This document shows, piece after piece, positions 11,393-56,900 of a stretch of DNA of 64,000 nucleotides. The position numbers and the translations under genes were made by a program. Every line of letters begins with the position of its first letter. Within the stretch, counting starts at the first letter, position 1. The notes beneath the pieces were generated by a model that saw nothing but the letters and a program-made list of their open reading frames with translations, was not told the DNA's origin and did no database searches. Origin of the DNA: Tricharina praecox (taxonomy: Eukaryota); contig NW_026250403.1 in assembly GCF_024521635.1 (NCBI RefSeq), positions 2,418,001 through 2,482,000 on the forward strand, read 5' to 3'.

Positions 11393-11819
11393 TAAACTTA
11401 CTACGCGCGCTTATGAACCCGTCTGGGCTCTGCTATGTTCTAACCCAGCGACTCAGCAGGAGTGTTATTACCCACTACCTTATCGACGAACTTCATATCG
11501 TGTATACAGCTACTGCGCTCTCCATAACTGCCATTATTAAGCATATGATCTCGACACATGCGTGCGTACTCATACTGGCTGAGCTTCGTAAGGATGACTA
11601 TGTACAGCTGCTGCACCCACCATAGCTGCCATCATGAAATTAGACATGTCGACGAAGGATTATTTTCTCTCGCGAGTGAGGATTTGTGATAAACTGTGGT
11701 TCGGATTTATGCTAGGAAAGCCTTCCGTTTTCCATGATCGAATCTGCTACTATAGAGCTCCCCTCTTAGCAAAACAACACAATGGTCGCCGTCGAACCCG
11801 CCACCACCGCCCTCCATAT

Positions 11820-12045
11820 GCATAAAATGCAGAAACCTCGAATCCAATCGAACCCGGAGCATGGGTTGGAGCCTGGCCGTCAGCCACTTGCTAAGTCCCA
11901 AGTTCCCATTCGTCGGCCTTTTCGTTCCCGGAGAACCCTTTTGTGTACCGGACACCACCTGATATCGATGGTGATTTCCTGTACCGAGCTTGGCGACAAA
12001 CCCATTGCCTAGGAACCATAACGCCGCACCGAGTGATTATTCTTG
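11820..12045 (-). mobile_element. Degenerate non-LTR (Tad1-like LINE) RNase H fragment
   Basis: Minus-strand translation ITIDIRWCPVHK..GNEKADEW (frameshifted), the RNase H WxPxHxGxxGNExAD motif. Confidence 0.65.
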
Positions 12046-12392
12046 TCACGCCACACGCCGCTCGACGAAGGTCGGAAAGATCAAGAGGTGATTATAATTC
12101 TATTATTGCTGAGCTGACAACACATAACCGTGACATAAAGCAAAAACAAAGTACGTTATTCCGTCTCACACAACCCTTCAACATATAAAACCCTCAGACA
12201 GGCACATCCATGATCCCCGCCACTTGCTCGAATAGCCCAAAGACAAAACCTCCTGCCCCACTACTCCGAGAAAAAGTCATTGGAAACCCGAAAAGAAAAG
12301 TGGTAATCGTACAGAATGATTGTGGAGAAGGAAGGTCGAAGATGGAATCTGATCCGGCGCACTATCATAGATACTAAGGGTCCGGCGAGCAC

Positions 12393-12588
12393 TTAGCAGA
12401 TGGTGCACATGTGGTCTATTAGAGTATCGGTCGTCAGCTACTATTGAAATTTGATCGGGACTATTGAGGGAGGGAGGGATGAGAGGTAATTAACAGTGGC
12501 CCGGGGGTTGTCCATTGTGACCGGGAGCAGCGGGAGTGTTGCCTTCCTCGGAGGTAGCAGTGGAGACGATTTGGATGGATGGCTGCAT
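12393..12588 (-). CDS. a-factor-like CAAX pheromone precursor, copy A: MQPSIQIVSTATSEEGNTPAAPGHNGQPPGHYHMCTIC (exons 12588-12495, 12415-12393)
   Basis: 79-nt intron GTTAAT...GCTGAC...TAG (weaker donor than B/C). The spliced ORF is 38 aa and ends in CTIC*. TATAAA at 12715-12710. Confidence 0.8.
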
Positions 12589-14100
12589 ATTGACTGGGGT
12601 AGGTAGGATAGCGAGGAAACTGTTGTGAGTTGATGGTTTGTATTGGTCTTGAAGGCGGATTGCTGGCTGGATGAGGATCTAGATAGAAATCAGGAGGATA
12701 GGCTCGTCCTTTATACACAATTTTCCTGTATGCAGACGAAGCTTCAAGCGTTTCTAGTAGGCTTGGCTAACAGCCGCTCCGCCAAACGAAATCCGGTACT
12801 TTGGGCCACATGGTGGCGGTCTGGCGGGCTTGGACTGTGGCGGACATGAACTGTGGCGGGCTTGCGATCGTTGTCAACTGATGGTGCCGTTTCACGTTTG
12901 TTCTAGAATATTGGTCGCGTCCGTCATGTCAGACGCGATCTCCGCTTCCTTCCTAGTTGCGGACTGGCGTGTAAAAAGAACAATCGCAAGACTTTCCATG
13001 CGGGATGTGCATAAGTAAGGTGACAGTCTTACGAGCTGTCGGCCACCAACAACTAATAATAGTTGAGGCTAAGTGGGCTTCATATGGAGACCCGCGCGGA
13101 AAACGGGGCGTGTAACTTGGCGATTGTCCCCTCGAGAGAATCTAGTAAGCGAGTCAGATGCTGTGATGCCCCGCTTATGTGCACTTCATGCTCACTCACC
13201 ATTGAGATCGGCGGTTGCAGCGGGAACCGGGACGGTTTTCAGTTACTACTGCGCATAGAATCACGTGATGATGCTGTGAAAATGCTCATCGATGACCAAC
13301 TCGACAGGAATAGCCTCACTCTTCTCCCAGATCTCGGAGCAATGGTGACTGTTCTTGCGGTGGCGCATGTTTGTAGTGGAGCCCAAGACCGGGTTTCCTA
13401 CTGTCCTAGTCGAAAGGAGATAGATAAAGGATAGATGGATCTGCCAGTCAACTCTTAAGGGAGTGAAACAGGACCGCAGACGGGAAAGAGCCTTGTAGGT
13501 ATGTAATCTGAGGCTTCTGGATCCATCATCTGCTACATACATACTCGCATGTTGCCATCCCGAATCGAATCAAATACTGTGCTTCATGTATGATGTCCGA
13601 CGATCGCGGTTGTTCCTGAGCCGCCTCAAGCTCGGCAGTGCGGGACCCCGAAGGACGGTGTAGGGCAGAAACATGAGTACGCACGTTCAAGCCACGGAAA
13701 CGCCTCTGGAATCGGTGCGGTCACCGGTACCATGTGAGATACATCATGCCGCTCGGAGTAACCGCTCACTTGGAGCTAGCGTATCCATCCGGCCATGGTG
13801 CGTGCTGCAATACATACATAGCCGGGGGTTTGCCGGCCCTCTGTCTGTCTTTCTCTAGGCCTTCAAGGTTCTGAGGACCTAGGAGCGAGATCGAGTCCTG
13901 CTGGAGGTGTAGATCTGCTGCTGCGGGGCTTCAATTCAATTCTGATTCCTGCATCTTTCCCAGACCTGCAGTGCGCCAAAACTGTCGAAGGCTCGGTGTA
14001 AAGCAGGAGCGAAGAGTACAGCTCGTTACCAAGCGGCGGGCGAAAAGTTCGTTGTGAAGACGAGATGAAAAGTTGAGAGGCTATGATGCGAAATCCTAAA

Positions 14101-18985: not shown

Positions 18986-21274
18986 GGTCGCAACGTGCCG
19001 CAGATCCAGCTTGCTCCACAGGTCCGGATGTGGGGGTGATGGGTATTTACATCTTTGCTGCCAGATTACTGCGTAGGAAGGTGCCGTGGAGGTGGGGAGC
19101 TGCGGCCGTTGAGGCCGAATGCCAAAGCCAGAGGCGGTAAGATTTGAGACACTGCTGTATGTAAGTAGATATGTCCGATATGTGCTCTGGACGTGTGTAG
19201 GGGTTGGGGCTTCCTTGTCGAGGCGCGTGCTTTGGCCGAGGTCGCGGAGACCAGCAAGACGGCCAGAGACTGACTGACCAGCACCGTGCTGCTATTGGTG
19301 GATTCTTGTACGTCGGAGGCATCACGGCATCACATCCATGTTGCATGCTGTGAGTGCGGCCGGCGTCATGCGGAACGGCCAACGCGCGAGCATCGCATCG
19401 CATCTAGAGTGGAGTAGAGTATATGTATGTATTTGCATAGTGCTTCTCCACACGTCTAGCTCGCTTCCCCGCATGTCCCACTTCCAAAGGCTGTTGCCGG
19501 ATCCATACATATCCACATCCACGCGATCCGTGACGCGGACGATCGCCCGCCGCGGCGGTCCCCAACCAGGTTCACGAATAGAGTGTGTCCGACGCATACA
19601 TACTAGGTAGACTACTACTAATGGGGTCGGGCCTTTTCGCATGGCGGCTCACTCAGCCCAGACTTTCTGGCCTCGGCCCTTCGTTTTCAGCCCCAACCCC
19701 AAACGTCTACCCCAAACGTCTACATGCTATATTGTCGGACTAATTCCGTCCCACGTGGAATCGGCGGTTGAAGATGTTCCGGCCGCCGACTCCGACCCTG
19801 GCCATAGTTACCAAGGCATAAGTCCCGACCCCGGCCATACTTAGACCTAGGTCCCGACCTCCGCGCGCCGACGTCAAACCATACCCTTCCTCCTCCCTCT
19901 TTCTTTCTTTCTGCTACACACCTTTTGTCTTGTTACCGAATAGTTACTCAACGGCGTACTTGCTTGCCGACGTATGTACTACATACCAGGTATGTACAGA
20001 TTTGAGTATTCTGTCTTGTATCGTATTTGCCTACTGTGTATACGATCAATCAAAGGGGGCAGGATCTGTGGTGGCGATATGGCACTGAAAACGGTCGTAT
20101 TTCTTGGAAAATACCTACTGGAGAGGTGCTTCGGTAGCGCTCTGTTTTTACATCACCATCGCGGCCAAAATGCTTATCCACCATCCACTATGTTGTAGAA
20201 ACAATCGACCATGCGTGGATCAGGTACCATATCGATACTGTATCCTACCCCACCTTGATTATACAGTAGCCACTAAACACCCGAGTATGTACGCCCCTTC
20301 AGGCCTCCAAGGAGCAGTGTCTTAGATCGGACATTAATTTAGAGCTTGATAGACAGCAACTCCTAGCTTATATTCTATCTGCCTAATCAATGGATATCGA
20401 TTGGATCTATCGATACACCCCGGCGTTTTAGTGATAGGTATCGCGTAGAAACCCATCAGGGCAAGCCAGGGCGGAGGTACATACATTTTACATATGATCA
20501 TACATGTCTGAGAGTGATTCCACACCCTTGACTCCGCTAGGTACCTATCATACTGACTCTGCTGCAACCTCAGAGTTGTTACATACATCACGTTGACTCG
20601 CAGGCTTGAGTGTATGTACTCGTGTCTCTGCCCCGGCCATAAGTGGCCGAGCTCCAGACTTCCAGTGAGCGAAAGCCCCCCCTACCCCGGGGTCGCCGCA
20701 CTGCCGAGCTTGAGGCGGCTCAGGAACAACCGTGATCGCCGGACATCATACATGAAGCACAGTATTTGATTCGGGATGGCAATATGCGAGTATGTAGCAG
20801 ATGATAGTTCTAGAAGCCTCAGATTACCTACGCCGCACCTTCTCGCGGCTTCAGTCGCGTTTCCAAGTTTCACTCCCTTGACTGGCATATCCATCGACCA
20901 TTTATCTTGATTCTCCTTTCGACGAGGACAGGAGGAAGCCCGGTCTTGCGCTCCACTGCAGACATGAGCCACCGCAAGAACTCAAGCCTGTTGCCATTCC
21001 CGCTGCAACCGCCGATCTCAATGGTGAGTGAGCATGAAGTGCACATAAGCGGTGCATCACAGCATTTGACTCGGTTACTAGATGCTCAAAAAAAACAGTA
21101 TTGGTCGCGGTTAATTAGTGTGAAAGGCTTTTAGAAGGGTGTGAGGAAGGGGTAGAACCGCGCGTGTCTCCATATGAAGCCCGCTTAACCTTAGCTATTA
21201 TTAGTTGTTGGTTGCCGACAACTCGTAGGACTGTCGTCTTACTTATGCACATCCCGCTTATAGAAAGTCTTGCT

Positions 21275-21553
21275 ATTGTTCTTTTTAACCGCGAGTCCGC
21301 GACTGGGAGGGAAGCGGAGGTCGTGTATGACATGACGGACACGACCAATATTCTAGCACAGACTTGAAACGGCACCATCAATTGGACAACAATCGCAAGC
21401 CCGCCACAGTTCATGCCTACCACAGTCCAAGACCGCCAGACCGCCGCCATATGGTCCAAAGTACCGGATTTCCTTTGGCCGAGCGGCTGTTGGCAAAGCC
21501 TAGATTCTAGAAACGCTGAAGGTTCGTCTGGAAAGAGGAAAATTGTGTATAAA
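21275..21553 (+). promoter_or_regulatory. Putative pheromone-gene promoter: HMG-like ATTGTT/AACAAT, PRE-like TGAAACG, CCAAAG-N11-CTTTGG, TATAAA
   Basis: ATTGTT 21275-21280, TGAAACG 21365-21371, AACAAT 21388-21393, CCAAAG 21456-21461 / CTTTGG 21473-21478, TATAAA 21548-21553. TATA and PRE-like motifs are conserved in copies A and C. Confidence 0.5.
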
Positions 21554-21695
21554 GGACGAGTCTATCCTCCTGGTTTCTAGATCCTCATCCAGCCAGCAAT
21601 CATCCGTCTTCAAGACCAATACAATCCACTCACACTCACAACACTTTCCTCGCTATCCTACCTCAGTCGCTATCCTACCTCAGTCAATTATCAAA

Positions 21696-21881
21696 ATGCA
21701 GCCATCCATCCAAATCGTCTCCACTGCTGCCTCCGAGGAATCCAACACTCCCGTTAACAATGGAAACCCCAAGGCCCACTGTTAGTTACCTCTCATCCCT
21801 CCCTCCCTCAATAGTCCCGATCAAATTTCAATAGTAACTGACGACCGATAATACCTAGACCACATGTGCACCATCTGCTAA
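21696..21881 (+). CDS. a-factor-like CAAX pheromone precursor, copy B: MQPSIQIVSTAASEESNTPVNNGNPKAHYHMCTIC (exons 21696-21780, 21859-21881)
   Basis: Start context CAAAATG. 78-nt intron GTTAGT...CTGAC(21838-21842)...TAG(21858), the first AG after the branch point. 35 aa ending in CTIC*. Confidence 0.88.
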
Positions 21882-22241
21882 GTGCTCGCTGGATCCTTAG
21901 TACCTACAGTGCGCCCGATCAGATTCCATCTTCGACTTTTCCTTCTCCACAATCATTCTGTACGATTAACGCTTTTCTTTTCGGGTTTCCAACGACTTTC
22001 GCGGGGTAGACTGTAGTGAGGCAGGAGGTTTTGTCTTTGGGATTATTCGAGCAAGTGGCGGGGATCATGGATGTACCGGTCTGATGGTTTTATGTTGAAG
22101 GGTTATGTGAGACGAAATAACGTACTTTGTCTGTTTTCGTTATGTCACTGTTATGTGTTGTCAGCTCAGCAATGATAGAATTATGACCACCTCTTCATCT
22201 TTCCGATCTTCGTCGAGCGAGTGGCATGACAGGAATAAACA

Positions 22242-22460
22242 CCCATTCACTCTCACGACCACTCACACAGTACGAGTCTCTGCAAAATCCACTCATCAAT
22301 CGTCTGCAACGTCCCATTCACTCTCACGATCACTCACACAGCACGAGTGTCTGCAAAGTGCCACTTACTCTCACGTTCGCTCACCAATGGTCTGCAACGT
22401 CCCATTCACTCTTCCGTCCACTCACTCTGCACGAGTCTTGGCAACGTCCGATTCACTCTG
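22242..22460 (+). repeat. Imperfect tandem array (cccattcactctcacg..cactcacac..cgagt.tctgcaa units)
   Basis: About 5 degenerate units starting exactly where cassette B homology stops. Confidence 0.7.
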
Positions 22461-24690: not shown

Positions 24691-24927
24691 GTAGTGCAGG
24701 CTGTTGCCCAGTACATCGATGTTTGATCCTTTACCTATGACATCAGCTTCGTACACCTGAGAGGAAACTTGGGTTTCATGTAACGCAGGCCTCTGTTCCA
24801 TCCCAGTGGGCAGAATTAGCCATCTTTATTGCCCATACTTGTACAAGGTATGTATGCTGGGGTCTTTACATCCACCACGGTGGATCAAAAGTCATGACTC
24901 GCTTAATTCAATCTTCAATTCACTCCT

Positions 24928-25404
24928 CTAATCTACCCACAGACCGGGCATTTTATGCTCCGGTTCCTCCTGCTCCTCCTGCTCCTCCTCCACCTCCTCC
25001 TCTCCTCCAGCACCTACTTTGACCCAGATGCTCTCGGCCGCACGGCTGGGCGCATATCCCCCTTCGTTCTTCAACGGATCGAGCCGGAGGCTCTTGTCCT
25101 CCTCGGGGCCACCGTACTTCTCCCCGAGGTGTATGCAGCGGCCGAGGGCCCAGCGCAGCTGCTTCTGGCGCTCCTTGAGCTCGGCGCGCAACTTCTCGTT
25201 CTCGGCGATGCTGATGCGGTCGGCGATCTCGGAGTTGTGCAGCAGGGACTCGATCAGGCGCCGCGCTCGTAGCGACTTGGCGGGGGCGGACGGCGGACGC
25301 TCTGGGAGCGGGGCGCGCGTGCTGGCCATATTAGCCTGGGTGGCGCTGGTAGCCGCGGTGGTGCTGGGTGTCTTCTCCGCCTTCGGCTGCGGCTTCTTGG
25401 TCAT
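24928..25404 (-). CDS. Orphan coiled-coil protein, paralog 1 (ancestral 5' end disabled)
   Basis: 158-aa ORF; the core ARRLIESLLHNSEIADRISIAENEKLRAELKERQKQLRWALGRC aligns with 37751-38077. C-terminus KMPGLWVD. Confidence 0.6.
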   Translation of the reverse strand: MTKKPQPKAEKTPSTTAATSATQANMASTRAPLPERPPSAPAKSLRARRLIESLLHNSEIADRISIAENEKLRAELKERQKQLRWALGRCIHLGEKYGGPEEDKSLRLDPLKNEGGYAPSRAAESIWVKVGAGGEEEVEEEQEEQEEPEHKMPGLWVD

Positions 25405-26089
25405 GCCCGAGGGCTGCAGAAGTTTGGGTGGCGAGGGGGTCGAGGGGCGCGGTCTTGGTGGGGGGCTAGGGCGACATGGTTTATTGGTATTTCTGTTGTC
25501 GTTATTGTTATTATTGTCGCTTGTGTGAAGAGTTGTTGTTGGTAATGTGTTCGCTGGATGGATGGTGGGAAGGGAAGGAAAGGAAAGACGGGAGCTGTGG
25601 CTTGGTGGGTTGGTTGGTAGAAAAGATGAGCTCTGAGGGCTGGTGGAGCGATTAAAGCATTTCAGTCTTGCGAAAGTGGGATACCTCCTCCCGCGCTAGC
25701 GTGAAGAAATTATCGCCAAAATCCACCTTTGCCGCGATTGTCGGATTACTGCTAACCATAAATCATCACTCGGTACGTTCTCCGGCGCAGTTGAAGTGGC
25801 AAATTTGGGTCCAGGAGCTACTGGTACAAGAAATAGAGAGAGAGAAAGAAAACCGAACTTGGACCCGCTACCGCACCGAATGTTCCGAGCACCTACCACC
25901 GGTCCTCTGAACGGCTGGTGGACCCACACTCATCACACACGTCTTTATTCCTCCCCTCCCTCGACGATGAAGTTCATCGTATGTATGTAGGGGTCCTCAG
26001 CTCCACAGCCGGCAACGCAATTGAGGCGTATCACGTGATTCGCATTAATACTACCGAGTGATATCTACCTAGTGCTCCCTCCGTCACGC

Positions 26090-26252
26090 CAAAAACAAAA
26101 ACCGTCACCACCCACGGCGGTGGGTGGCTTGGAAACCCCAAGAGCTGAATACAAAGATCTTTCACCTGGGTTGAACCCAGAACCTTCCATCAGCTCCCCT
26201 CGCCGATTGCGTGGTCTAATGGTTTAGGCCACGCGGGTTTTTTTCCGTGCCG
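26090..26252 (-). mobile_element. tRNA-derived SINE-like/Pol III element
   Basis: Reverse complement of 36931-37093; B-box GGTTCAACCC within a CTGGG/CCCAG stem; T-run terminator. Confidence 0.55.
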
Positions 26253-26825
26253 GAAACATGAATTTGATGTTTATAAGGTAGTGGGTGCCCCGCCTTTGCA
26301 AGTGCTTTGCTTGCACTGAGCAGATCATAATTGAACCTCTCGCCTTACAAACGGCCAAGCAGAGCACCTACTCTACTCCAGCGTCCACTCGGAGGGAATC
26401 ACAATGACGTGCCGGTATCGCAGCCACCGCCTGCGCGATTCTTGAACTGCCCAACTGCCCGGTTTGTGCTTGCCGCCCAGGCTTCTTTCTGTATATTTGC
26501 TGTGTGGAGTCCAATTCGTCACACTCCCACTCCACCTCTCAATCAACTTACTTGGGCATTGCGTTGATTCATTATTCGGCGAGGTCAGTCGCTTAAGATC
26601 ACCTGAGGAGATGGCATTCGGACGTGGTCATTTCCAGCGCTTGTGTTTTCGAAAGCACTTGGGACTTTGGCAGTCGGTTCAATGAAGCCTCTGACCACGA
26701 TCCTGGATGCGCAAGAAATACAGACACAGAGGATTGGATGAAAGGCTAGTTTTGGGCCAATAGTCAGGAATTTGGGTTGAATATCTCAACACGCAGATTA
26801 AATTCCTCATCCATGATATCTTGTT

Positions 26826-27809
26826 CTACACGGCCTTGTTCGCCATCCCCGAAACGTCCGTGTAAACATCGAACCTCCTCTGCGTCCCGACCGGGATCCC
26901 GCTCCTCACCTCCGCGATCCTCTCGGGCATCAACTCGACCATCACCGTCTCCTCCCCGGGCCCCGCCTTCTCCATGACCAATCCGTTCGGGTCAACAACC
27001 ATACTCTCGCCCCACGCCACATATCCCGTTCCTTCCAGCTCCCTGGCCGGCGAGCACATCGCAACCCACACCTGATTATCGACGGCCCTCGCCCTAGCCA
27101 ATAACTCCCAATGCAGCGGCCCGGTGGTCATATTGAACGCGCCGGGGTAAACCATGGCGAACGCGCCCCTCCTCGCCGCGATCATTGCCATCTCGGGAAA
27201 GCGCACGTCGTAGCAGATGCCAACACCGACCTTTCCGTAGGGGGTTTCGACGAGCGTCAGCGCGTCGCCCGCGGTCAGCACCTCCGACTCGCGGAAAGTG
27301 ATTTTGCCCGGGATGTCGATATCGAATAGGTGGACCTTCCTGTGCTTTGCGAGCAGCGCGCCGGTTGGGGAGAAGATCAGCGAGGTGTTGTACAGCTTCT
27401 CGGTCGCCGGCTCCAGCTCGGGGATCGAGCCCGCGATCAGGTGGATCGAGTGCTCCTTCGACAGCGCCGAGAGGTGGTTGTAGCTCTGCGATTCGCTCCG
27501 TGCGCTCGCGCTCGCCGCCGTCTCGAGTGATGGCAGTGCCTCGGCGTACTTGGGGAAGTGCTCGCAACCGTACGGCGAGTTGAAGCATTCCGGCAGGACC
27601 ACGATGTTGGCGCCCGCCTTTGCGGCCTGGGCGACTTTTTCCGAGGCACGAGTGAGGTTCGCGGTTTTGTCGCTGCCTAGGGTTCTTGCATTGCCGGGTT
27701 AGAGCCGAGTGTGGGGAGACATGGAATGGGATGAAAGGTTACCCGTTTTGAGCTGGATCAGGGCCAGCTTGACTGGCTTCAAGAGAGGGTTGGGCGGTGC
27801 CGTCGACAT
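26826..27809 (-). CDS. NIT3: Omega-amidase (nitrilase family, NIT2/yeast Nit3); intron 27742-27677
   Basis: LPECFNSPYG, KHRKVHLFDIDIPGKITFRESEVL, GICYDVRFPE (E-K-C triad), PGAFNMTTGPLHWELLARARAVDNQ. Confidence 0.93.
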
Positions 27810-33000: not shown

Positions 33001-34644
33001 CAAACTCAGGACGGAGCGCGAGGCTGTATGTACCAGTATGTACAGTACATACATCATATGTGAATCCCGGATTCCCCACGTAGAACAGATGCACGTTTTC
33101 GTGGGGAAAAGCCGGCCGGTCGGCCATGCAGGGTGCAACTAAAGCTCGACTACTCTACTCTACTAGTTAGTACCTAGTGCAGGCAAACCAGATTGTTGGA
33201 GTCAGCCTCCAGCCAATTCCCCAAGAAGGGAAAAAGCATTCAATCTTGCCGCGTATCAAGAGCTGGCTCTTGAGACGACGGCAGGTTCGATGGTCAATCC
33301 GTTCGAGAAATCTATCGTGACGTCCGCTGCCAAGAGAAACATCGGATCCAACCTCCGGTTGCATTGCGTTCGAACTTCGCAAGCCTCCTCGTCCGGCGGG
33401 CTGATTACATATCCCATGCATACAGTTATCCGCCAGGCATCATCACTCGTCCATCCAACGCGGCCGCACGGCCGGCCTCTAAATCCCGGAAGCTGCTCTA
33501 CTGGATTTAAGTGTGAGCTCCGCGAACTATATCGACTCTATTATAGACACAGCCCAATGCGGAAAAAACAAACCCTTTAAAACGCCAAAAAAAAACGCAG
33601 CACTCGTCCGCGAGCGAGCTGCACAGGGGAGGATTCCCCTTTTGTGAACCATGAGAGATAACTTTGGGGATGATCGCCGGCACCGTGGGAATAGGTATAT
33701 GCCATCCCACGCACGCTACTACCTAGTAGAGTAACCCCGATCCCACGGTACCGAACGAACATGTCCAGATAACGGAGTCGAAGCAAGTGAACCGCTCAAA
33801 AAAGAAACGCAGCTTGTGCTTTTTTTGTTTTTGTTTTTTGCTTCGGGATGGGCCGCGGCGGTGGAAAGGGTGCACCGCGAATCACCAGTCCGGCCGGTTG
33901 GATCATGGGGTATCACGCGAGAAGGTCGGGGAGATCCGCCGCCCACGACTAGTAGTAAAAACGAAAACTATTTCGAACCCAGTCGGAGGGGGCATGGGAG
34001 ATGGGGGTCTTCCGTGAGCTTGTCATCGGGCGGTTCATGTGTCGTGGCAGGACTGTGGATGGGAAAAAAGTACATATACACGCCGTCAGTCTTCCATAGG
34101 GCCGAATAGAGTAGGTACGAGCATGATCAAACCCCCCCACCGAAAAAGAAAAATGAAAGTAAAAAATGATTCAAGTACCGGTCAATACTCTACATATGGT
34201 CTTCATGAGCCGGCATACGTTGCGGACGGACGGGCGGATGGACGGGGTTCTGGAATCTAGATGCGCTTAACGTGTGTATTTTCGATTTTTCCAGAACCTG
34301 ACTGAAATTTTTTGATATCTCTCCCTTCTGCATGGTCCGCTGAACTCTACCCGCTCCCCTCCGAGCAAGACAAGACAATGGTTCCCGTCGAACCCGCCGC
34401 CGCCCTCCAATGCCTCCATATGCAAAAAATGCAGAAACCTCGAACCCAATCGAACACAGAGTAGGGGGCCGTCGGCCCCTTGCCAAGTCCCAGTTCCCTT
34501 TCCTCAGTGGTTATGTAGAACACGTGAGCACCGACGAGTGAGAGTATCAGCAAACGACGCGCGTAGATCCCAAACGCGCAGACTATGATCAGGGGAGGTG
34601 GCGAGGAAGTGTTGTTAGTTTGATCCCCAGGGTACACGTCTGGT

Positions 34645-35075
34645 TGACTCGTCGTCCACTGGAGGTACTGGCCGGTGAGACACTGTTCTGCTTCATCTGG
34701 TAGAACCTCGAATCCAGCCGCTTAGAGGCCATGATGGCCAGGAACGGGTCCGGTCTCTAGCTACATTTTCTGCCGAACCGGTACTTCTTGTTGGTGACTC
34801 GGGCGCCGGCCAATGCTTTGGCTTCTTTCCACTTGCTTTACGTGATGCCTCGCCTCAGGTATGCGAGTTACGGAGGTGGTAGCGGTCTGGTGCCTTCCAC
34901 TCCGTGAGCGATGGGGTTGCCAGCTGCCAGTTTGGTCCATTCGTCGGCCTTTTCGTTCCCGGGAACCCTTTTGTGTACCGGACACCATCTGGTCTCAATG
35001 GTGGGCTCCTGTACAGGGCTTGGCGACAAACCCATTGCCCATTGCCCACCATAACGCCGCACTGAGTGATTATTC
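34645..35075 (-). mobile_element. Degenerate Tad1-like LINE ORF2 3' fragment (RNase H and downstream region)
   Basis: TIETRWCPVHKRVPGNEKADEWTKLAA, followed by ASKRLDSRFYQMK..CLTGQYLQW with stops and frameshifts. Confidence 0.8.
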
Positions 35076-35425
35076 CTGTCACGCCACACGCCGCTCGACG
35101 AAGGTCGGAAAGATCAAGAGGTGATTATAATTCTATTATTGCTGAGCTGACAACACATAACCGTGACATAAAGCAAAAACAAAGTACGTTATTCCGTCTC
35201 ACACAACCCTTCAACATATAAAACCCTCAGACAGGCACATCCATGATCCCCGCCACTTGCTCGAATAGCCCAAAGACAAAACCTCCTGCCCCACTACTCC
35301 GAGAAAAAGTCATTGGAAACCCGAAAAGAAAAGTGGTAATCGTACAGAATGATTGTGGAGAAGGAAGGTCGAAGATGGAATCTGATCCGGCGCACTATCA
35401 TAGATACTAAGGGTCCGGCGAGCAC

Positions 35426-35615
35426 TTAGCAGATGGTGCACATGTGGTCTATTAGAGTATCGGTCGTCAGCTACTATTGAAATTTGATCGGGACTATTGA
35501 GGGAGGGAGGGATGAGAGGTAACTAACAGTGGGCCTTGGGGTTTTCATTGTTAACGGGAGTGTTGGATTCCTCGGAGGCAGCAGCAGTGGAGACGATTTG
35601 GATGGATGGCTGCAT
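35426..35615 (-). CDS. a-factor-like CAAX pheromone precursor, copy C: MQPSIQIVSTAAASEESNTPVNNENPKAHYHMCTIC (exons 35615-35528, 35448-35426)
   Basis: CAAAATG start; 79-nt intron GTTAGT...GCTGAC...TAG; 36 aa ending in CTIC*; TATAAA at 35737-35732. Confidence 0.88.
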
Positions 35616-36930
35616 TTTGATAATTGACTGAGCTAGGACAGCGAGGAAAGTGTTGTGAGTGGTTTGTAATGGTCTTGAAGGCGGATTGCTGGCTGGATGA
35701 GGATCTAGAAACCAGGAGGATAAGCTCGTCCTTTATACCCAATTTTACTCTATCCAGACCTATCCAGACGAAGCTTAAAGCGTTTCTAGGCTTGGCCAAC
35801 AGGTCATCGGCCAAAGGAAATCCTGTACTTTGGACCATATAGTGGCGGTCTGGCGGGCTTGGACTGTGGCGGGCATGAACTGTGGCGGGCTTGCGATTTT
35901 TGCCAATTGATGGTGCCGTTTCAAGTTGGCTAACAACCGCTCCACCAAAGGAAATCCGGTACATTGGGCCCATATGGCGGCGGTCTGGCGGGCTTCATAT
36001 GGAGACCCGCGCGGAAAACGGGGCGTGTATCTAACTTGGCGACTGTCCTCGAGAGAGAATCTGGATCGCTGAAATGAGCCCCCAAGGTCGAAATTCCTAG
36101 ACACTTCAATACGTCCTCTTTAGTTAGATGGTGTGGGATTCGGGGGATTCTATCCCTTCCTCACACCTGTCTAAAAGTCTCTCACACTAATTAACCGCGA
36201 CCAATACTGTTTTTTTCGAGCATCTAGTAAGCGAGTCAGGTGCTGTGATGCCCCGCATATGTGCACTTCATGCTCACTCACCATTGAGATCGGCGGTTGC
36301 AGCGGGAACGGAGACTGGGTTCAGTTACTAGTTATTGCGCATCGAAACTACCCCATTGTGCGATACATGCTTACCAATGACTAACTCCATAAGAATTCCG
36401 AATAGTCTGGCCCTTCTCGCAGCTCTTAAAGATCTCGAAGACTTCGGAGTGTTGACTGTTTTTGCAGTGGCGCATGATTGCAGTGGAGCTCGAGACCGAA
36501 TATTCTACCCGTCAAAAGGAGATAGGTAAGTGGCCGATGGATATACCAGTCAACTTTCAAGGGAGTGAAACGGGACTGAGGCCGTGAGAAAAAGCGGCGT
36601 AGACAATCTGAGGCTTCTAGATCTGCTATACAGTACATAATCTCATGTTACCATCCCGATTCCAGAATCAAATACTGTGCTTCATGTATGATGTATCATG
36701 TCTGTCAATGTACATATGTACATCGAACGTGACGAGGATACCGACGGCGACGAGCGAGCTTAGTTACCAGTAAAACACGCACGCAGATCCCAAAGGCGCA
36801 GAGGCTCTAAAAGGGCACAATTGCTCAACTGGCGTTGATAATATATGGCTTTCAAGAGCTCTTTCAACGCAGGCAGCGTTGTTGTGCTGGAGCCGCACGC
36901 ACCACTTTATAGACATCGAATTCATATCTC

Positions 36931-37093
36931 CAGCACGGAAAAAACCCCCGCGTGGTCTAATGGTCTAGGCCACGCAATCGGCGAGGGCAGCTGATGGAAG
37001 GTTCCCGGTTCAACCCGGGTAAAAGACCTGTGTATTCAGCTCTTGGGGTTTCCAAGCTACCCACCGCCGTGGGTGGTGACGGTTTTTGTTTTT
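36931..37093 (+). mobile_element. tRNA-derived SINE-like element or Pol III ncRNA (~150 nt)
   Basis: A-box TGGTCTAATGG 36953-36963; B-box GGTTCAACCC 37007-37016 in a T-arm-like stem; 3' hairpin acccaccgccgtgggt; TTTTTGTTTTT terminator. Confidence 0.6.
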
Positions 37094-37184
37094 GGCGTGA
37101 CGGAGGGAGCACTAGTTAGATATCACTCGGTAGTATCACGTGACAAGGCTTGACGCTTACGCTGCCCAGGGGGTCCATGTTCGG

Positions 37185-37187
<3 letters not shown>

Positions 37188-37216
<29 letters not shown>
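37188..37216 (+). repeat. (TC)n microsatellite
   Basis: Direct observation. Confidence 0.9.
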
Positions 37217-37219
<3 letters not shown>

Positions 37220-37750
37220 ACCGGTAGCTTCTAAACCTAAGCATACCACTTTATCTCTCTCCATGTAGATCATTCTAGTGAATCACCTCCACCAGTCCTT
37301 CCCACATTTTGATGTGTCCTTATTGTCTTCGATATCCGCCGGGAATACATACAATCTCTATTCACAGGCCGAAGAGCTTGCTTCAGACTACTCCATAGTA
37401 GCGAAACCTCCCACTCTCGCAAGATTGAAGCCATTGTCACCAAAACCCACCTTTGCCGCGATGTCGTAGTACTGCCGACCATGGCACATCACTCGTTTTC
37501 CCTCTCCTTCCCTTCCCTTCCCACCATCCATCCACCATCCATCCATCCACAGAACACTTCACCAACAACTCTTCATCTTCACACAAGCGATCAACAACAA
37601 CGACAACGACGACGACGACAAAAATAACAATAACCCATTTCGCTGCAGCCCCCCACCAAGACCGCGCCCCCCTCGCCACCCAAGCTTTTGCAGCCCTCGG
37701 GCATCGTCAAGAAGACAAAGACCAAGAAGGAGAGGACTCCCGCCGCCACC

Positions 37751-38077
37751 ATGGCGGCCACCAAGACCACCCAGGCCACCACGCGTGACCTGCTCCCCGA
37801 GCGTCGGTATTCTCCCACCGCCAAGTCGATACGTGCGCGGCGGAAGATTGAGTCGCTCGTGCACAACTGTGAGATCGCCGACCGCATCAACGTTGCCGAG
37901 AACGATAAACTGCGTACCGAACTAAAGGAGCACCAGAAACAGCTGCATTGGGCCCTCGGCCGCTGTATTTTCCTCGAGGAGATGTACGATGTCCCCAAGG
38001 AGGGGCAGGAAGTGCAGGAGGAGAAGGAGGAGATAGAGGAGCCGGAGCAGAAAATGCTCGGTGTGTGGGTTGATTAG
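37751..38077 (+). CDS. Orphan coiled-coil protein, paralog 2 (frame open from ATT at 37637)
   Basis: GCCACCATGG start at 37751; aligns with paralog 1; ends KMLGVWVD. Confidence 0.6.
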   Translation: MAATKTTQATTRDLLPERRYSPTAKSIRARRKIESLVHNCEIADRINVAENDKLRTELKEHQKQLHWALGRCIFLEEMYDVPKEGQEVQEEKEEIEEPEQKMLGVWVD

Positions 38078-38349
38078 AGGAGCGAATTGAGATTGAATCA
38101 AGCGAATCATGACTTGTGATCCGCCGTGGTGGATGCAACAACCCCAGCATACATTATGTACCATGTACAAGTATAAACAATAAAGATGGCTAATTCTGCC
38201 CACTGGGATAGACAATATACAGAAATTAAGCATATATTAACGATCTGCCTATATAATATTATAAACTTTCCAGCTACAAGTATAATCTTCTATCCAGCGA
38301 ATCAAATATAGCGCGCTCCTCCCATCGGAATCCAGGGATTACAAGTCGA

Positions 38350-39539
38350 TCACAAGTCATCCTCCAGCGGGCTCTCACCCTGCGCAGTGCCCAGCAAGCT
38401 CTCAAACTGCAGCTTGTACCACTCGACGTCCTGACGGTTTCCCATCCACTTGGCGAAGCCCAGGGGCTCAGTCCACTGCTTCGAGAACGGATCCTCAGCG
38501 GCCAGCTCCCTCCTCGTCGACGATCCCGAGGCGGTCTGGTACTCGTCGCTCATGATCCAGCTGACGAACAGCTTCGCAGTCTCGGGCATCTCAGTGCTGG
38601 CAAAGATGGCGCCGGTCTGCGCCCACGACATGTAGCGGTCCGCCGGCTCCACCGTGTGAATGTTCTCCTCGCCGGTTCCGAACGAGCAGAAGGTGATGGA
38701 CACGGGCGAGGCGGGGTTGGCGAGCATTGTGCCGGGGGTCGTGCTGCCGCGAACCCACGTCACGTTCTGCGCCATCAGCGACGTGAACCAGCCCCAGCCG
38801 TACTTCTCAATGATCAGCGCGAAGAGGTACGCGATCGCGTCGTCGTCGTTCGGGTACGTGAGGACGATCTTGTCCTTCCATGCGGGCAGCAGGAAGTCGG
38901 TGTACGTCGTCGGGATCGTGGTGTTCAACGGGCGCTTGTCGGAGTTGAAGACAATGTTGCCGAACGAGACTTTGCTCCTGTTAGCTACTCGCTCACGGGC
39001 GACAGGGGGAGAATAGGTAACGCACTGAAAAAGCCAGCATAATAGTATCCCTCGCTGTCCTTGACCTCATTGTAGATGCTCTCCCATGGCTTCGCCTTGT
39101 ACGACATCAGGCGGCCTTGTTCCTTCCACCGCGGGAAGTCGTGCAACGTCTGCAGGAACGCAATATCGTATATATCTTTACCGGTCTCAATGAAGGCACG
39201 GTCCGTGTGGCTGTCGTGATATTTGGACACGTCCACCGTCAGGTTGATCGCGATGCCAGGGAAGGCTTGCATGAATGCCAGAGCGGTGGCATTGGATTTC
39301 TCTGGGTATTGTGTCAGCGGAAGAGCACGCCAGCGCCGTCACGGAGCGATATGTAAAGTACCGTCACCACCCCAGGCCACCTGGAGTGTCTTGCCCTTGG
39401 ACTCCGCTAAGGCTGCGGAGTAGATCTCGTCGATGCTGCGGGTTTCGACTCCGGTATCACGAGCTTTGGGCGCGGCGAGTGTTGGTAGGGCTAGCGAGAG
39501 GACGCAAGCCAGGACTGCAGGAGTTTTCCAGAACTGCAT
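38350..39539 (-). CDS. Secreted ABC-type Fe3+/thiamine substrate-binding-protein-like protein (3 exons)
   Basis: Signal peptide MQFWKTPAVLACVLSLALPTLA; DVSKYHD, LQTLHDFPRWK, LTYPNDDDAIAYLF, WVRGS, AKLFVSW. Introns 39361-39302 and 39025 to ~38970. Confidence 0.88.
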
Positions 39540-43289: not shown

Positions 43290-45230
43290 AGGCATGAAGT
43301 TTTTTAAAACAGTTTCGCTTATCGCTAAGACAGGGTGGCTTGTAACAGCCTTTACAGGCCCAGTGAGTTTTGGGTAAGTTATCGGATACACCCCGTCCTC
43401 GGTGTTTCCAGCGGCACAACCAACTAGTCTGCCGCGTATCCAGGTGTATTGGGGTATAATCGCAGCCACAGTGAAGGTCCGGAGGCAGAGTCGAGTCCTA
43501 CGTTACTCTAACAGACTTTTTTCCGGTCGGTTTCGGCGTTTTATTTTTTGACGAGAACGCGGATATCAGCTTCCATGCACACTACATACGCAACTCTTTG
43601 TGGCTGATATCAGGAGTACCTTCGATGTCGGAATAGATGAGGTATGCATTGGTGAGCATCGCATCGAGCGCCCAAAGAAACATAGGCGACCAAGTACGAA
43701 ACGATGTGAGCTCGGTGTTGTAGCGACCTCGCTGCTGGTCGGCAATATCAAAACCAGCCATATGATCGCTGTAGTCCTCAAAACAAGCAGGCATCGGCAG
43801 CTCCTCCTCTTGATCGTCGTCATCGCTAAATTCTTCCGGTGCCTTCTTATCATTGGTGCTCTTCTCTCCAGGTCGCTTGAGATTACGAACGGTCTCGGCG
43901 TCGAGATGGTGCGCGGTGGTCAAGAGCGTGGCAGGACCTTGGTCGAACCAGACCAAAGCACCAACCTGCTCTCCGAAGGTTGGATCGGAAACAACTACGG
44001 GTTCGAGGAGTCATAGTCGTACTTCGCAACGTCTTGCTTCGGGATTTTAAGTTCGGCGGGGAAGCTAGCGGAGCTGGGACGCACGGTACCGCAACCGCCC
44101 ATCTGGAGGTCATGACGTAACCTTCCAAGCAAGGGAATTGTCGCATAATAGTTATCGAGATGGACAATCCAGTATCGCGAACGTGGAAGCGTCTTTAGAA
44201 GATGGAAAGCAACCTCCTCAGTCGCAGTAAGGTCTTCGATAGGCTGGACGGGGTCGGGTCCTGCTTGGTTCGAGGTCGGAAGGAAATCCCAAATTTAACC
44301 CTGGTCTGCAAGACAATGGAACTTAAATCCGTGCTCCATAGGCTCGCCCGGCATCGTGTAGGTATCCGGTGTCCTTCCAGTACAGAGAATCATGGCTTGG
44401 CCAACTGCAATATTGCTCGATGGTAGTCTGTACGCCTGCGCACCTGCTCTCAACTGTTTGAGAAACGGATCGACTTCCGCATGCCATAGGCATCTTCCCG
44501 AGTTAGTCGAAAGCTCAACACTTGGCGAACAGACATGGAAATGTCTCGTAATCTGCTCGAATCGGTATTGGCTCATCCACTCGGCAATGCGATGTTTGGG
44601 ACTAAAACGGTCTTGCTTCCAATAGTCGGCAACCGTTGGCGAACAATGCACACCTATATACACCACCATCCCTAGCCAACAACCAATCTCGTCCGCTGAA
44701 ACGTCTTGCCATGCCCATCCACCAGACTTCTGGCTTTCTCCCCCTCTTTTCTCCTCCGCATATACGTTGATGTGGTTGGATAAAGTTTCAAGAAGGGTAG
44801 GTGTCAAGAAAAGTTTAAAAATGTCGATAGGTTGAACGTCCTCAAGGTCTCGGATAGCCGAGGGTAGAGTATTTTATGCCTTGTGAGGGGATTGCGGAGG
44901 AGGCATTGGGTGAAACACAGGGTATGGCGACTGATTTTGGGCGGCCGGTAGGTGACTTTGTTGGTTCGATTGGAAGGGCGAGTGATTTTCCGTGAGGAAA
45001 GTTTTTTCGCAGGTGCTGTGCCCTTTACTGGCTGCTGTGCGCTGGATAGGGTTATTGACATCTCGGTGTCATCGTCCGAAGAGCTGGGATCAGAATGGGG
45101 TTTTGCTGGCCGCTGACGAATGTTTCTTTCCGATACGTTGGGTGGTTTGATCTCTAGGTGGCCCTCCAAGTTCTGTCTTTTATACCTATTTCTGACCACG
45201 TCAAGACAATTGGCGCACAGCACTGACTTT
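43290..45230 (-). pseudogene. piggyBac-family transposase pseudogene
   Basis: WQDVSADEIGCWLG, MSQYRFEQI, IAVGQAM (first catalytic D lost), GFKFHCLAD, LDNYY, MAGFDIADQ, and a C-terminal CKGCYKPPCL..RNCF Cys-rich domain. Multiple stops and frameshifts. Confidence 0.9.
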
Positions 45231-53956: not shown

Positions 53957-56900
53957 CTAAACCGCCTGTTGGTCCGCGTCCTCCCACCATTCCATCCCAT
54001 TGACCTCAGTCCACCTCGTTCCCCACGACTGTTGCAAAAGACTAACCCTCGCATCTCTCCCTCGCCTACCGCCGTTACTGAACACTTCTGCCGATCTCGC
54101 CGTTGTGTTTCTCCTAAGTGCAAAAACCAATGCCACCGTCATGCCACAAGTCAACGCCGTGTAGACAGCTAACCCGGTACGTACCAAACCGGCGTCCTCC
54201 AAACTAGCGCTAACCCCAACCGCCATTGCGGCAAACAAAAATGCAATCCCGTGGAAAATTGCCAGACCGGAGCTGAGACAGGGATGCGACGTTGTAAAGC
54301 TCTCGTCATATCGGTGGAGGCTGGCCGGTAGTTGTGTTCGGTGCTGATGTGTCGTCGAGTTCGATAGCGACCCAGACCCCGGTGTAAGAGCGGGTTCTGG
54401 AAGATCGGATATGTCGAAATTGTCCATCATCATGTTGTAACACTCTGCGATGACCATGGCACCGGAAAATGAGACAACCGCTGTAAAGAATACAGGGGCC
54501 ATGAAGTGAACCGGGGGCCCCGCGGCCGAAATGGTTAAGGCGATACTCGCCATTGGTAGCAGAATAGCACCGGTCCAGAGTACGGCTCGGAAAGGATGTT
54601 GTCCAACATCTTTATGACCGTAATTATTGTTGTGTATCGCTACACTCGAACGATGTCGGAAATTGGAACGATACAGCTTGCAGAGTTGAGTTGGAATAAC
54701 AAGTAGGGCTCCCGCGGCAAGCGCAAAAACCGCAAGGCCAATGTCAGTAGTGGCGAATCCGTAGGTTGTGGTAATAAGCGACGACAGGAGCTAAAGCGAG
54801 CTGTCAGACATTATTCAACCCGAGAACGCGGACACGAACCATCATAACCAGCATGAGATAGCCAAAGACCCATCCAAAGTACACTGCGATGATCAAGAAG
54901 CCCTTTTGATGGAGCATCTTCCAAGTCAATACCATGCCAGCCCAGACCTCCTCCCACCAGTATTCCGGCGAAGTTCCAAACATGACCAGCTTGAGTTCTC
55001 CTCTTTCTGTAGCTCCCTTAGCGGCGGACCGATGTTCTGGTTTGTGGGTCATTTTCCACGGTGGTCGAACTTCCGGCGCTACAACGACCAAGACCAGAAC
55101 GAAGCCGGCAAGAATCATGACTGTCCAGAATCCCCAAGCAGGATCCGTGGCGTCAACTGTTATCTTTCCGAATAGATACCCAACAGCTGGAGATGCGACA
55201 AATAGCCAAGTGAAGATACCAATCCACGCCCCCGTCCTCACACCGGCATCGCCCCCGGGAATATTGTTATACACGTTTTGACCTTCTATGGGGACGGGAC
55301 TGTTGTAGACTACGCCGCCGCGACAGCAGGCTCCAGTGTCAGGGCCAAACAAGTCGAGGATCGTCGCCAGGGAATTCATGAACGCAAATCCAAGCACTAT
55401 CCCAGAGAAACTACGAAAGAAAAGCAGGCAGACAACATAGGGTTGCATTGTAAACGAAACGCTTGGTTGGACGGTATGCGGCGGTAGCGATAACGCCTGC
55501 GGAAGCTGCAATGGAAGCATAAACGCAATCGAGAGCAAAAGATAAGGTTTCCGTCCGTGTAGTAAGGGCAGCGGCCAAAAGAACAGAGTAGGAATGAAAA
55601 GGCCGAGAAAGAACATTGAATTGCCCAAGGATGCCACCCGCGGAGTGATCTGTAAGTGCTCCTGTATCCTAGGGAGCTCTGCCTAATAGCTTCCGATAAT
55701 CCATCCGTTTAACCCCACCACCGCACAGGCAACGCTAGCTGTGAATCGTTTGCTCCAGAGATTCCACTCCCATCCGCCCTTGTATCTTCGTGGTGCACAA
55801 ACGACTGCAGCCTCGGCAGGCCTAGGAGGCCCGAATTCGAGTGACATGTCCGGGCGAGGGAGACGGACCAGAATGATCTCGCCATTCTCTCCGACTTCCA
55901 TGCGAAATTGCTGCTCTAGGTTCCCAGGAACCGAAGCTCTAGCGATAGATCCTTCCCGACTGTATCCTTTTATGGCTCTGGTTGAAGCCATCTCGGAAGC
56001 AGAAGTGTTCTGCCGGTTACTATTCCATGCGCTTTCCCGCTCAGACTCCTGCATATCGATAGATTCTTCCCGACTGTAACCTTTGATGGCTCTGGTTGAA
56101 GCCATCTCGGAAGCAGAAGTGTTTTGCCGGTTGCTATTCCATGCTCTTTCCCGCTCAAACTCCTGCATATCGATGAATGGAATAGGAGAGCGATGATGTT
56201 TCTGTCGAGACCGCCCTTTTCCGTTGCGTTCCGACGTTCTCCGACTTGAATGCTCCCAGTTTTCCGAAGACACACCTACTGAGCTTCCAATACTGGCGTC
56301 CTGCTGAATTACTTTGGTCCTTGAACGTTTGGGCTGATCTTCCGTGAGCTCGCTCGAAACATCCTCCGAAACCTCCATTGGCAACCCCGAAACCTGCACC
56401 GGTATCTGTTCCGACATGGACTCTCTCGTCGACTCTCTTGTCGAGTCCTTCATCGAGCCCTTCATCGAGTCGTTCACCGAGTCGCGCATAGACTCCTGTG
56501 CATGCTCCCGCATCTGTTCTGGCTCCGGGCCCGCTCTCTGCTCCGGCATCTTCCCTTCCGGCAAATCAATCTCTTCTTGAACATAGATCGACTCCGGGGC
56601 AGTCACGGCGGGATCTGTGCCCTCGAAGACGCTCAAGAAGCTTTCATGCGTGCTTCCCTTGGCACTCCGTATGCTCCTATCGCGCTGATCCAACGCCGAG
56701 TGGGAGCCTTGGACGGCTCGTCCGGCAATCTCCAGTGCCTGATTCAACATCTCTTCCAGGTCGCTGATGATCCTCGTGAACGATGGCGCGGAATTTGGAG
56801 TACCCAAGTTCTCCGTAGATCCCATCATGCTGCGAGATGAGTGGTGGATGTTGGCTCGGATGAGATCCGCCACGCTTGATTCGGCTTTGGAAAGGTCGGA

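Follow-up and report, generated by a model that had tools for sequence, protein, structure and literature searches.

The Pezizomycetes are the class of the truffles, the morels and the fire-following cup fungi, and their mating biology limits both cultivation and population studies. The question raised by the present locus, a 64-kb window of the Tricharina praecox genome (the whole stretch of DNA that was analysed), is whether it holds genes for a lipid-modified mating pheromone of this class, and, if so, how many different peptides such genes would encode. In Pyronema confluens, a member of the same family (Pyronemataceae), the genome paper of 2013 (Text S2) reported both receptors, including the Ste3-type one, together with homologues of the processing proteins Ste24, Rce1, Ste23, Ram1 and Ram2, and the BLAST searches of that year found no pheromone precursor gene. 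Literature searches, non-exhaustive, turned up no paper describing a lipopeptide pheromone from a pezizomycete.

Three paralogous two-exon genes, named A, B and C, lie within a cluster of about 23 kb in the window (Table 1), and their structure and copy number are seen directly in the DNA. A phase-1 intron of 78-79 nt interrupts a Tyr codon between its first and second bases in all three copies, and only once this intron is removed does a CaaX box, C-T-I-C followed by TAA, come into frame (3/3 copies); the unspliced ORFs each run into a stop two codons into the intron and have no CaaX end. In copy A the branch-like CTGAC lies 17 nt ahead of the acceptor. The precursors obtained by scripted splicing are all shorter than 100 residues and have in common the C-terminus H-Y-H-M-C with the C-T-I-C box and its prenyl Cys; each has a single CaaX box, internal CaaX repeats being absent, and on reading the longest hydrophobic stretch is I-Q-I-V, i.e., there is no secretion signal. 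The 23-nt exon 2 has three perfect copies in the window (0 mismatches; 0/100 shuffles matched), which bears out the identity of this exon at the DNA level proposed in the initial annotation. Two further stretches, the opening 29 nt of the coding sequence and a 48-nt part of the intron, also recur without change in all three genes. The positions first assigned to the feature, 12402-12540, cover only part of gene A, which extends from an ATG at 12588 to the stop given in Table 1. Two internal AATAG sites were considered as alternative acceptors and rejected: both lie upstream of the branch-like CTGAC, the first would leave an intron of about 37 nt, judged too short, and the second (57-nt intron) gives a translation without the CaaX end.

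Table 1. Positions of the three gene copies and associated features in the 64-kb window
Feature	Position	Strand	Details
Gene A	12393-12588	minus	precursor of 38 residues (splicing by coordinates, script)
Gene B	21696-21881	plus	precursor of 35 residues (splicing by coordinates, script)
Gene C	35426-35615	minus	precursor of 36 residues (splicing by coordinates, script)
Copy A exon 1	12495-12588	minus	94 nt; ATG 12586-12588; 31 codons + 1 nt
Copy A variable part, A-specific	12500-12555	minus	within exon 1
Copy A 9-nt tandem duplication, inserted columns	12519-12527	minus	within exon 1
Copy A intron	12416-12494	minus	79 nt, phase 1; donor GTTAAT; acceptor TAG
Copy A exon 2	12393-12415	minus	rest of Tyr codon, H-M-C-T-I-C, TAA; stop 12393-12395
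Copy B exon 1	21696-21780	plus	28 codons + 1 nt
Copy B intron	21781-21858	plus	78 nt; donor GTTAGT; CTGAC; acceptor TAG
Copy B exon 2	21859-21881	plus	same sequence as exon 2 of A and C
Copy C exon 1	35528-35615	minus	29 codons + 1 nt
Copy C intron	35449-35527	minus	79 nt; donor GTTAGT; same as copy A intron from +6
Copy C exon 2	35426-35448	minus	same sequence as exon 2 of A and B
Duplicated block around A	11757-13643	minus	limits approximate
Block partner, B	~20696-22219		inverted; approximate
Block partner, C	~34353-36662		direct; approximate
A=C identical tract in A	12044-12489	minus	446 nt, longest A=C run
A=C identical tract in C	35077-35522	minus	446 nt
TATAAA, copy A	12710-12715	minus	127 nt upstream of ATG
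TATAAA, copy B	21548-21553	plus	upstream of B ATG
TATAAA, copy C	35732-35737	minus	upstream of C ATG
TGAAACG heptamer, copy A	12888-12894	minus	at -306
CN-hydrolase intron	27675-27740	minus	donor GTAACC; branch site CTAAC

The explanation that fits these features best, and one that is rather probable, is that the cluster consists of three paralogous, intron-split genes for lipopeptide pheromone precursors of the a-factor/M-factor type. The gene model of a three-copy precursor family of this type is well-supported by the sequence, and it is by analogy with yeast that we infer transcription, splicing, each processing step and the pheromone function of A, B and C. The spliced mRNA would then be translated into a cytosolic precursor of 35-38 residues, in which the Cys of C-T-I-C would be farnesylated, the last three residues removed and the Cys methyl-esterified; Ste24 together with an Axl1/Ste23-type protease would subsequently remove the N-terminal part, the cut probably falling behind an Asn. 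The resulting lipopeptide of 8 to 18 residues, ending in H-Y-H-M-C(farnesyl)-OMe, would leave the cell through a Ste6-type ABC transporter, and the partner would perceive it by means of a Ste3-type receptor.

The number of different ligands predicted depends on where the N-terminal cut falls. In known ascomycete a-factors, according to the Srikant et al. preprint, cleavage occurs after an Asn, before an aromatic or uncharged residue and 5-20 residues from the Cys, and the proposal that the Tricharina precursors are cleaved after Asn agrees with this rule of thumb. The Asn-X sites of all three precursors sit 8-18 residues before the Cys and thus inside the range of 5-20 given there; A has two candidate sites, with products of 10 or 18 residues, and B and C have four each, with products of 8, 10, 11 or 15 residues. 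The 10-residue peptides listed in the initial annotation, GQPPGHYHMC (A), GNPKAHYHMC (B) and ENPKAHYHMC (C), were confirmed by the scripted splicing; all three differ at this site, and the peptide from C would begin with a Glu, which is atypical. Cutting after the Asn that follows an acidic S-E-E stretch in all three precursors would likewise give three different products, here 15-18-mers. A cut after the last Asn would yield the same 8-mer from B and C, so that the possibility that processing at another site gives identical peptides would apply to this pair, but A has a Gln at that position and stays distinct. Among the last ten residues, compared between three paralogues of one genome, B and C agree at 9/10 and A and B at 7/10, A differing from B/C at 3-4 of these residues ahead of the CaaX tail. 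Counting back from the prenyl Cys, the first differences between A and B/C are met 6 and 7 residues away, and at least two products are therefore predicted for any peptide of more than 5 residues. The prediction is thus of at least two mature peptides at any Asn site and of three at most sites, so that the three distinct pheromones originally proposed hold for most cuts, but a cut of B and C at the last Asn of each would leave two.

How the copies came to differ can be followed in a three-way alignment of the ~2-kb duplicated blocks, in which substitutions were counted per aligned nt. Between A and B there are 31/284 in the promoter, 9/113 from the TATA box to the ATG, 0/33 in codons 1-11, 10/52 plus a 9-nt indel in the remainder of exon 1, 6/78 in the intron, 0/23 in exon 2 and 33/342 in the 3′ flank. 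A and C differ at only 1/79 in the intron and 1/350 in the 3′ flank, as had been noticed at the outset, and B and C at 1/52 in the remainder of exon 1 and 32/342 in the 3′ flank. The 446-nt tract of A=C identity extends from intron position +6 to 349 nt beyond the stop and starts right after the sole A/C intron difference (A in copy A versus G in C, at +5); across it, copy B differs at 55/455 alignment columns. In exon 1 the partners are exchanged: B and C are separated by 1 substitution in 85 nt and a 3-nt indel, C having an additional GCT codon and a GGA>GAA change (Gly>Glu), and from 17 nt before the ATG through the exon this codon and the one G>A are the only differences. At a divergence of 9.4%, a likeness of at most 1 change in 85 nt has P = 0.002.

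This mosaic pattern is seen directly in the alignment, and because C has one tract in common with B and a different one with A, it has the hallmark of gene conversion between old duplicates. That the copies have undergone conversion is clear on this evidence, and the 446-nt A=C tract reads as a recent conversion tract. A segmental duplication would have produced copies that became ~10% diverged and subsequently exchanged tracts: intron, exon 2 and 3′ flank between A and C, exon 1 between B and C. A would have retained a differing sequence immediately ahead of the common C-terminus. On this account at least two peptides are predicted, one of the A type and one of the B/C type, with a third if cleavage of B and C falls ahead of the Gly/Glu position. 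The suggestion that copy A might be a chimeric allele was right as to the mosaic, for which the support is strong, but it is C, and not A, that has tracts in common with each of the other two.

The differences of copy A itself are open to two readings. In exon 1, A and B differ by 10 substitutions, all of them non-synonymous (Sd 0, Nd 10, over 23 synonymous and 82 non-synonymous sites), and pN, at 0.122, is about equal to the non-coding divergence of 0.097, so that the rate of change in A is no higher than neutral. A had been described as diverging sharply only near the mature region, and this is not so: the differences (10 substitutions in 52 aligned nt and the 9-nt insertion) span codons 12-30, though their density peaks in the last six variable codons. 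The insertion is, on reading, an in-frame tandem duplication with two 9-nt units that are 7/9 alike, of which B and C have one. The excess of changes in the variable part of exon 1 (10/52 nt) gives P = 0.026 before correction for scanning; the densest 30-column window of A-specific changes contains 7, at the last variable codons of the exon, and 1829/20000 shuffles reach the same value, i.e., the clustering is not significant after scanning. The evidence for diversifying selection is accordingly weak, with P about 0.03-0.09, and the idea of a ligand diversification concentrated in the signalling part stands as suggestive only, with the 10/10 non-synonymous changes in its favor and the neutral-like pN and the shuffles against it. 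As far as the sequence goes, the data on A fit selection for a distinct ligand and also relaxed constraint on A.

The second of these readings leads to the alternative that survives best, namely that the cluster has only one functional ligand, A being a decaying or poorly spliced copy whose 3′ half was recently overwritten by C; B and C, if cut after the last Asn, would release the same 8-mer, and there would be no ligand diversification. This alternative is a real, if clearly lesser, possibility. It would explain why the donor of A, GTTAAT, with an A at +5, looks weaker than the GTTAGT of B and C, why 7 nt are deleted directly before the ATG of A, why the copy-specific substitutions in the 5′ half number 25 in A versus 10 in B and 16 in C, and why the pN of A is what would be expected without constraint. 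The Glu that follows the 10-mer Asn in C, set against the aromatic or uncharged residue of the rule in the preprint, also favors cleavage at another site. However, the frame, start, CaaX box and stop of A are all intact and its sole coding indel is the in-frame 9-nt duplication; the first 33 nt of its coding sequence show 0 changes relative to B (P = 0.035); and the 446-nt conversion tract ends 6 nt into the intron, short of the peptide-coding exon 1 of A, which was left untouched. The weaker-looking donor has, moreover, a parallel in the one annotated intron of the window that was verified, that of the CN-hydrolase gene (Table 1), whose GTAACC likewise has no G at +5, which implies that such donors are used in this genome (n=1). 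Copy A genuinely encodes a different peptide, and the ligands may also have diverged in function.

A more radical alternative, that these are not pheromone genes and that the sequences represent small prenylated peptides of some other role or a fortuitous ORF in a duplicated non-coding segment, is quite improbable, and it has to be weighed against the constraint on the reading frame. Codons 1-11 and exon 2 together have 0/56 nt changed between A and B versus 79/817 in the non-coding flanks (P = 0.003); for the 23 nt of exon 2, zero changes at the 9.7% A-B non-coding divergence give P = 0.096, not significant alone. Although the flanks are ~10% diverged, 3/3 copies retain the ATG, the CaaX box, the stop and a canonical intron that preserves the frame, both coding indels are in frame (3 nt and 9 nt), with flank indels on reading mostly not multiples of three, and a TATA box is present at each copy. 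The length, Asn sites and copy number, moreover, match those of known lipopeptide pheromones. What can be said for a non-pheromone role begins with the first 50 nt of the intron, which are as invariant as the coding ends, so that gene conversion may account for part of the conservation of the latter and could even explain it, homogenisation by conversion being a process that can mimic purifying selection. CaaX ends, according to Wilson et al. 2023, are not exclusive to pheromones.

It also has on its side that no orthologue or annotated protein was found in the protein searches. With an exon-1 query lengthened to 40 codons, no candidate relative appeared among proteins of 22-70 residues; no annotated protein was found for the three genes; and degenerate patterns scanned against metagenomes, one for exon 2 and one for the N-terminus, had 0 matches each. 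When a profile was built from the three unspliced exon-1 ORFs, it gave 2 matches at E<=0.001 among 1.84 billion representative proteins, both repeat-like proteins of 134-135 residues that were judged unrelated. Rfam (gathering thresholds) and a tRNA scan of the 64-kb window returned 0 matches each, and the strings of the predicted peptides gave 2 chance matches in the literature. Among the sequencing runs found to contain the stretch there is no RNA run. The contigs from sequencing runs over the stretch (X1, 4; X2, 1; X3, 0; X4, 0) are of low depth, DNA-like and unspliced; one of 283 nt is unspliced over 12269-12489 and then jumps to copy B, which identifies it as an assembly chimera between repeats. 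These contigs say nothing on expression either way.

That the differences all fall in a discarded pro-region, so that three genes would make one identical mature peptide, is highly improbable: the last eight residues are the same in all copies, and the Schizosaccharomyces paralogues encode one peptide with variation in the prosequences (Seike et al. 2019, PMC6342294), but the nearest differences lie too close to the prenyl Cys, no Asn lies closer to it than 8 residues, and an identical product would have at most 5 residues, the lower limit of the range in the preprint.

If the three genes do encode lipopeptide pheromone precursors, they can be compared with several known systems. According to Seike et al. 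2019 (PMC6342294), S. pombe has three intron-bearing mfm genes and S. octosporus six, dispersed short precursors with one CaaX end from which a single 9-residue farnesylated and methylated product, the M-factor, is made. The Tricharina genes resemble mfm1-3 and So-mfm1-6 in being multi-copy, intron-split and short, with a single CaaX end; by eye, the B/C peptide and two M-factor sequences moreover have P-K at positions 3-4 and a Y..M-C end in common, a likeness too short for statistics. The same paper gives one identical mature peptide per set for 453/453 S. pombe genes and 6/6 S. octosporus genes, with variation in prosequences and introns, whereas in Tricharina copy A differs, the first 11 codons being invariant and the variation lying beside the mature C-terminus. 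Schizosaccharomyces also belongs to a different subphylum than Tricharina.

The a-factor precursors of S. cerevisiae begin with Met-Gln-Pro, as do those of Tricharina. MFA1/MFA2 and the other Saccharomycotina a-factors, as covered in the Srikant et al. preprint, are likewise small CaaX precursors encoded by multi-copy genes, multiple copies being usual for lipopeptide pheromone genes in yeasts, and the N-terminal cut after Asn is made there by Axl1/Ste23, following Ste24. Their genes, however, are mostly intronless, unlike the intron-split Tricharina copies, and in them the mature region is most conserved and the N-terminal part varies, the reverse of what is seen in Tricharina.

Within the Pezizomycotina, the a-type precursors, such as those of the Sordariomycete mfa-1/ppg2 type and the putative Leotiomycete a-factor, also have a short, S/T-rich N-terminus and a terminal CaaX/CpaX box (PMC10182648, PMC10569646); in these two papers, multi-copy a-factor genes are given only for Cryphonectria (2 copies) and Huntiella (up to 7). 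The Huntiella genes, as described there, are intronless and have internal CaaX repeats, whereas those of Tricharina have an intron and one CaaX box each, which places them apart from the multi-CaaX repeat type of Trichoderma HPP1 and Huntiella. A Gly-Tyr next to the CaaX Cys is common to Sordariomycete and Leotiomycete a-factor candidates in Wilson et al. 2023; the H-Y-H-M-C end of Tricharina has the Tyr but not the Gly-Tyr.

On this comparison the cluster probably adds a new member to the a-factor/M-factor kind, and in the Pezizomycetes no such genes seem to have been described. Krappmann and co-workers are said to have described, in 2025, an a-factor-like pheromone of Aspergillus fumigatus, which may bear on the novelty of the Tricharina genes. 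The intron-aware gene model provides a query and a search recipe for relatives, and the cluster is a natural test case of whether lipid-modified pheromones, invariant in fission yeast, can diversify within one genome. A stronger proposition, that T. praecox makes two or three farnesylated pheromones from one cluster, with selection keeping the A ligand distinct against conversion, and that these genes share common descent with M-factor, is, taken as a whole, doubtful. If it were true, the intron-split layout and the P-K...Y-x-M-C likeness would point to a lipopeptide pheromone gene traceable by descent across the Taphrinomycotina/Pezizomycotina split. Basidiomycetes have several different farnesylated pheromones per genome, with the genes beside receptor genes in the mating-type locus, and T. 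praecox would offer an ascomycete counterpart of such multi-pheromone systems; its ligands might then pair with more than one Ste3-type receptor specificity, or one of them might have a non-mating signalling role. Unlike these basidiomycete loci, the present window has no receptor or MAT gene among the Pfam matches to its 129 ORF translations.

Upstream of the genes, TATAAA is found 122-148 nt ahead of the ATG in each copy (Table 1), and no upstream ATG was seen between this box and the start on reading the sequence and the alignment. A heptamer, TGAAACG, which we take to resemble the pheromone-response element of yeast Ste12, lies further upstream in A (Table 1) and at -331 in B and -308 in C; because the promoters of the three copies have a common ancestry, it is a lead only. 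A 45-nt promoter element occurs once in A (12763-12807) and twice in C (35792-35836 and 35926-35970), 80-91% alike, and by alignment also in B; on the gene strand it has inverted arms, CCAAA-N13-TTTGG, and could be a regulator site.

Among the 129 ORF translations of the window, 7 have Pfam matches, to a fungal Zn-cluster factor, a kinase, a CN-hydrolase, an MFS fragment, piggyBac-like transposase fragments and a solute-binding-like domain. The CN-hydrolase, of 305 residues across one 66-nt intron, is identical at 305/305 to a Tricharina praecox protein at NCBI, which places the window in T. praecox or a near-identical strain. Its next matches are a JGI protein (88%), Sphaerosporella brunnea (80%) and Trichophaea hybrida (78%); the 88%-identical protein is encoded on a 41.6-kb JGI contig (P0003) that might be syntenic. 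The Zn-cluster factor ORF matched only itself in a homologue search. The solute-binding domain of an ORF at 38353-39066 (minus strand), SBP_bac_6 (E 3e-8), is of bacterial type, though the genome is fungal, and two ORFs at 43585-44873 (minus strand) match a piggyBac-like transposase (DDE_Tnp_1_7, E 1e-28 and 2e-4), probably a degenerate transposon. A second duplicated segment lies near B and C (24850-26319 and 36864-38154), inverted and with arms 72-91% complementary; its ORFs have no Pfam match, and the copy at 37.4-38.1 kb falls into several frames. The B block is followed immediately, at 22221-22459, by three direct repeats of ~80 nt that are 63-80% alike, and two tandem 114-nt repeats, 93% alike, occupy 55940-56167 inside an 858-codon ORF without a Pfam family.
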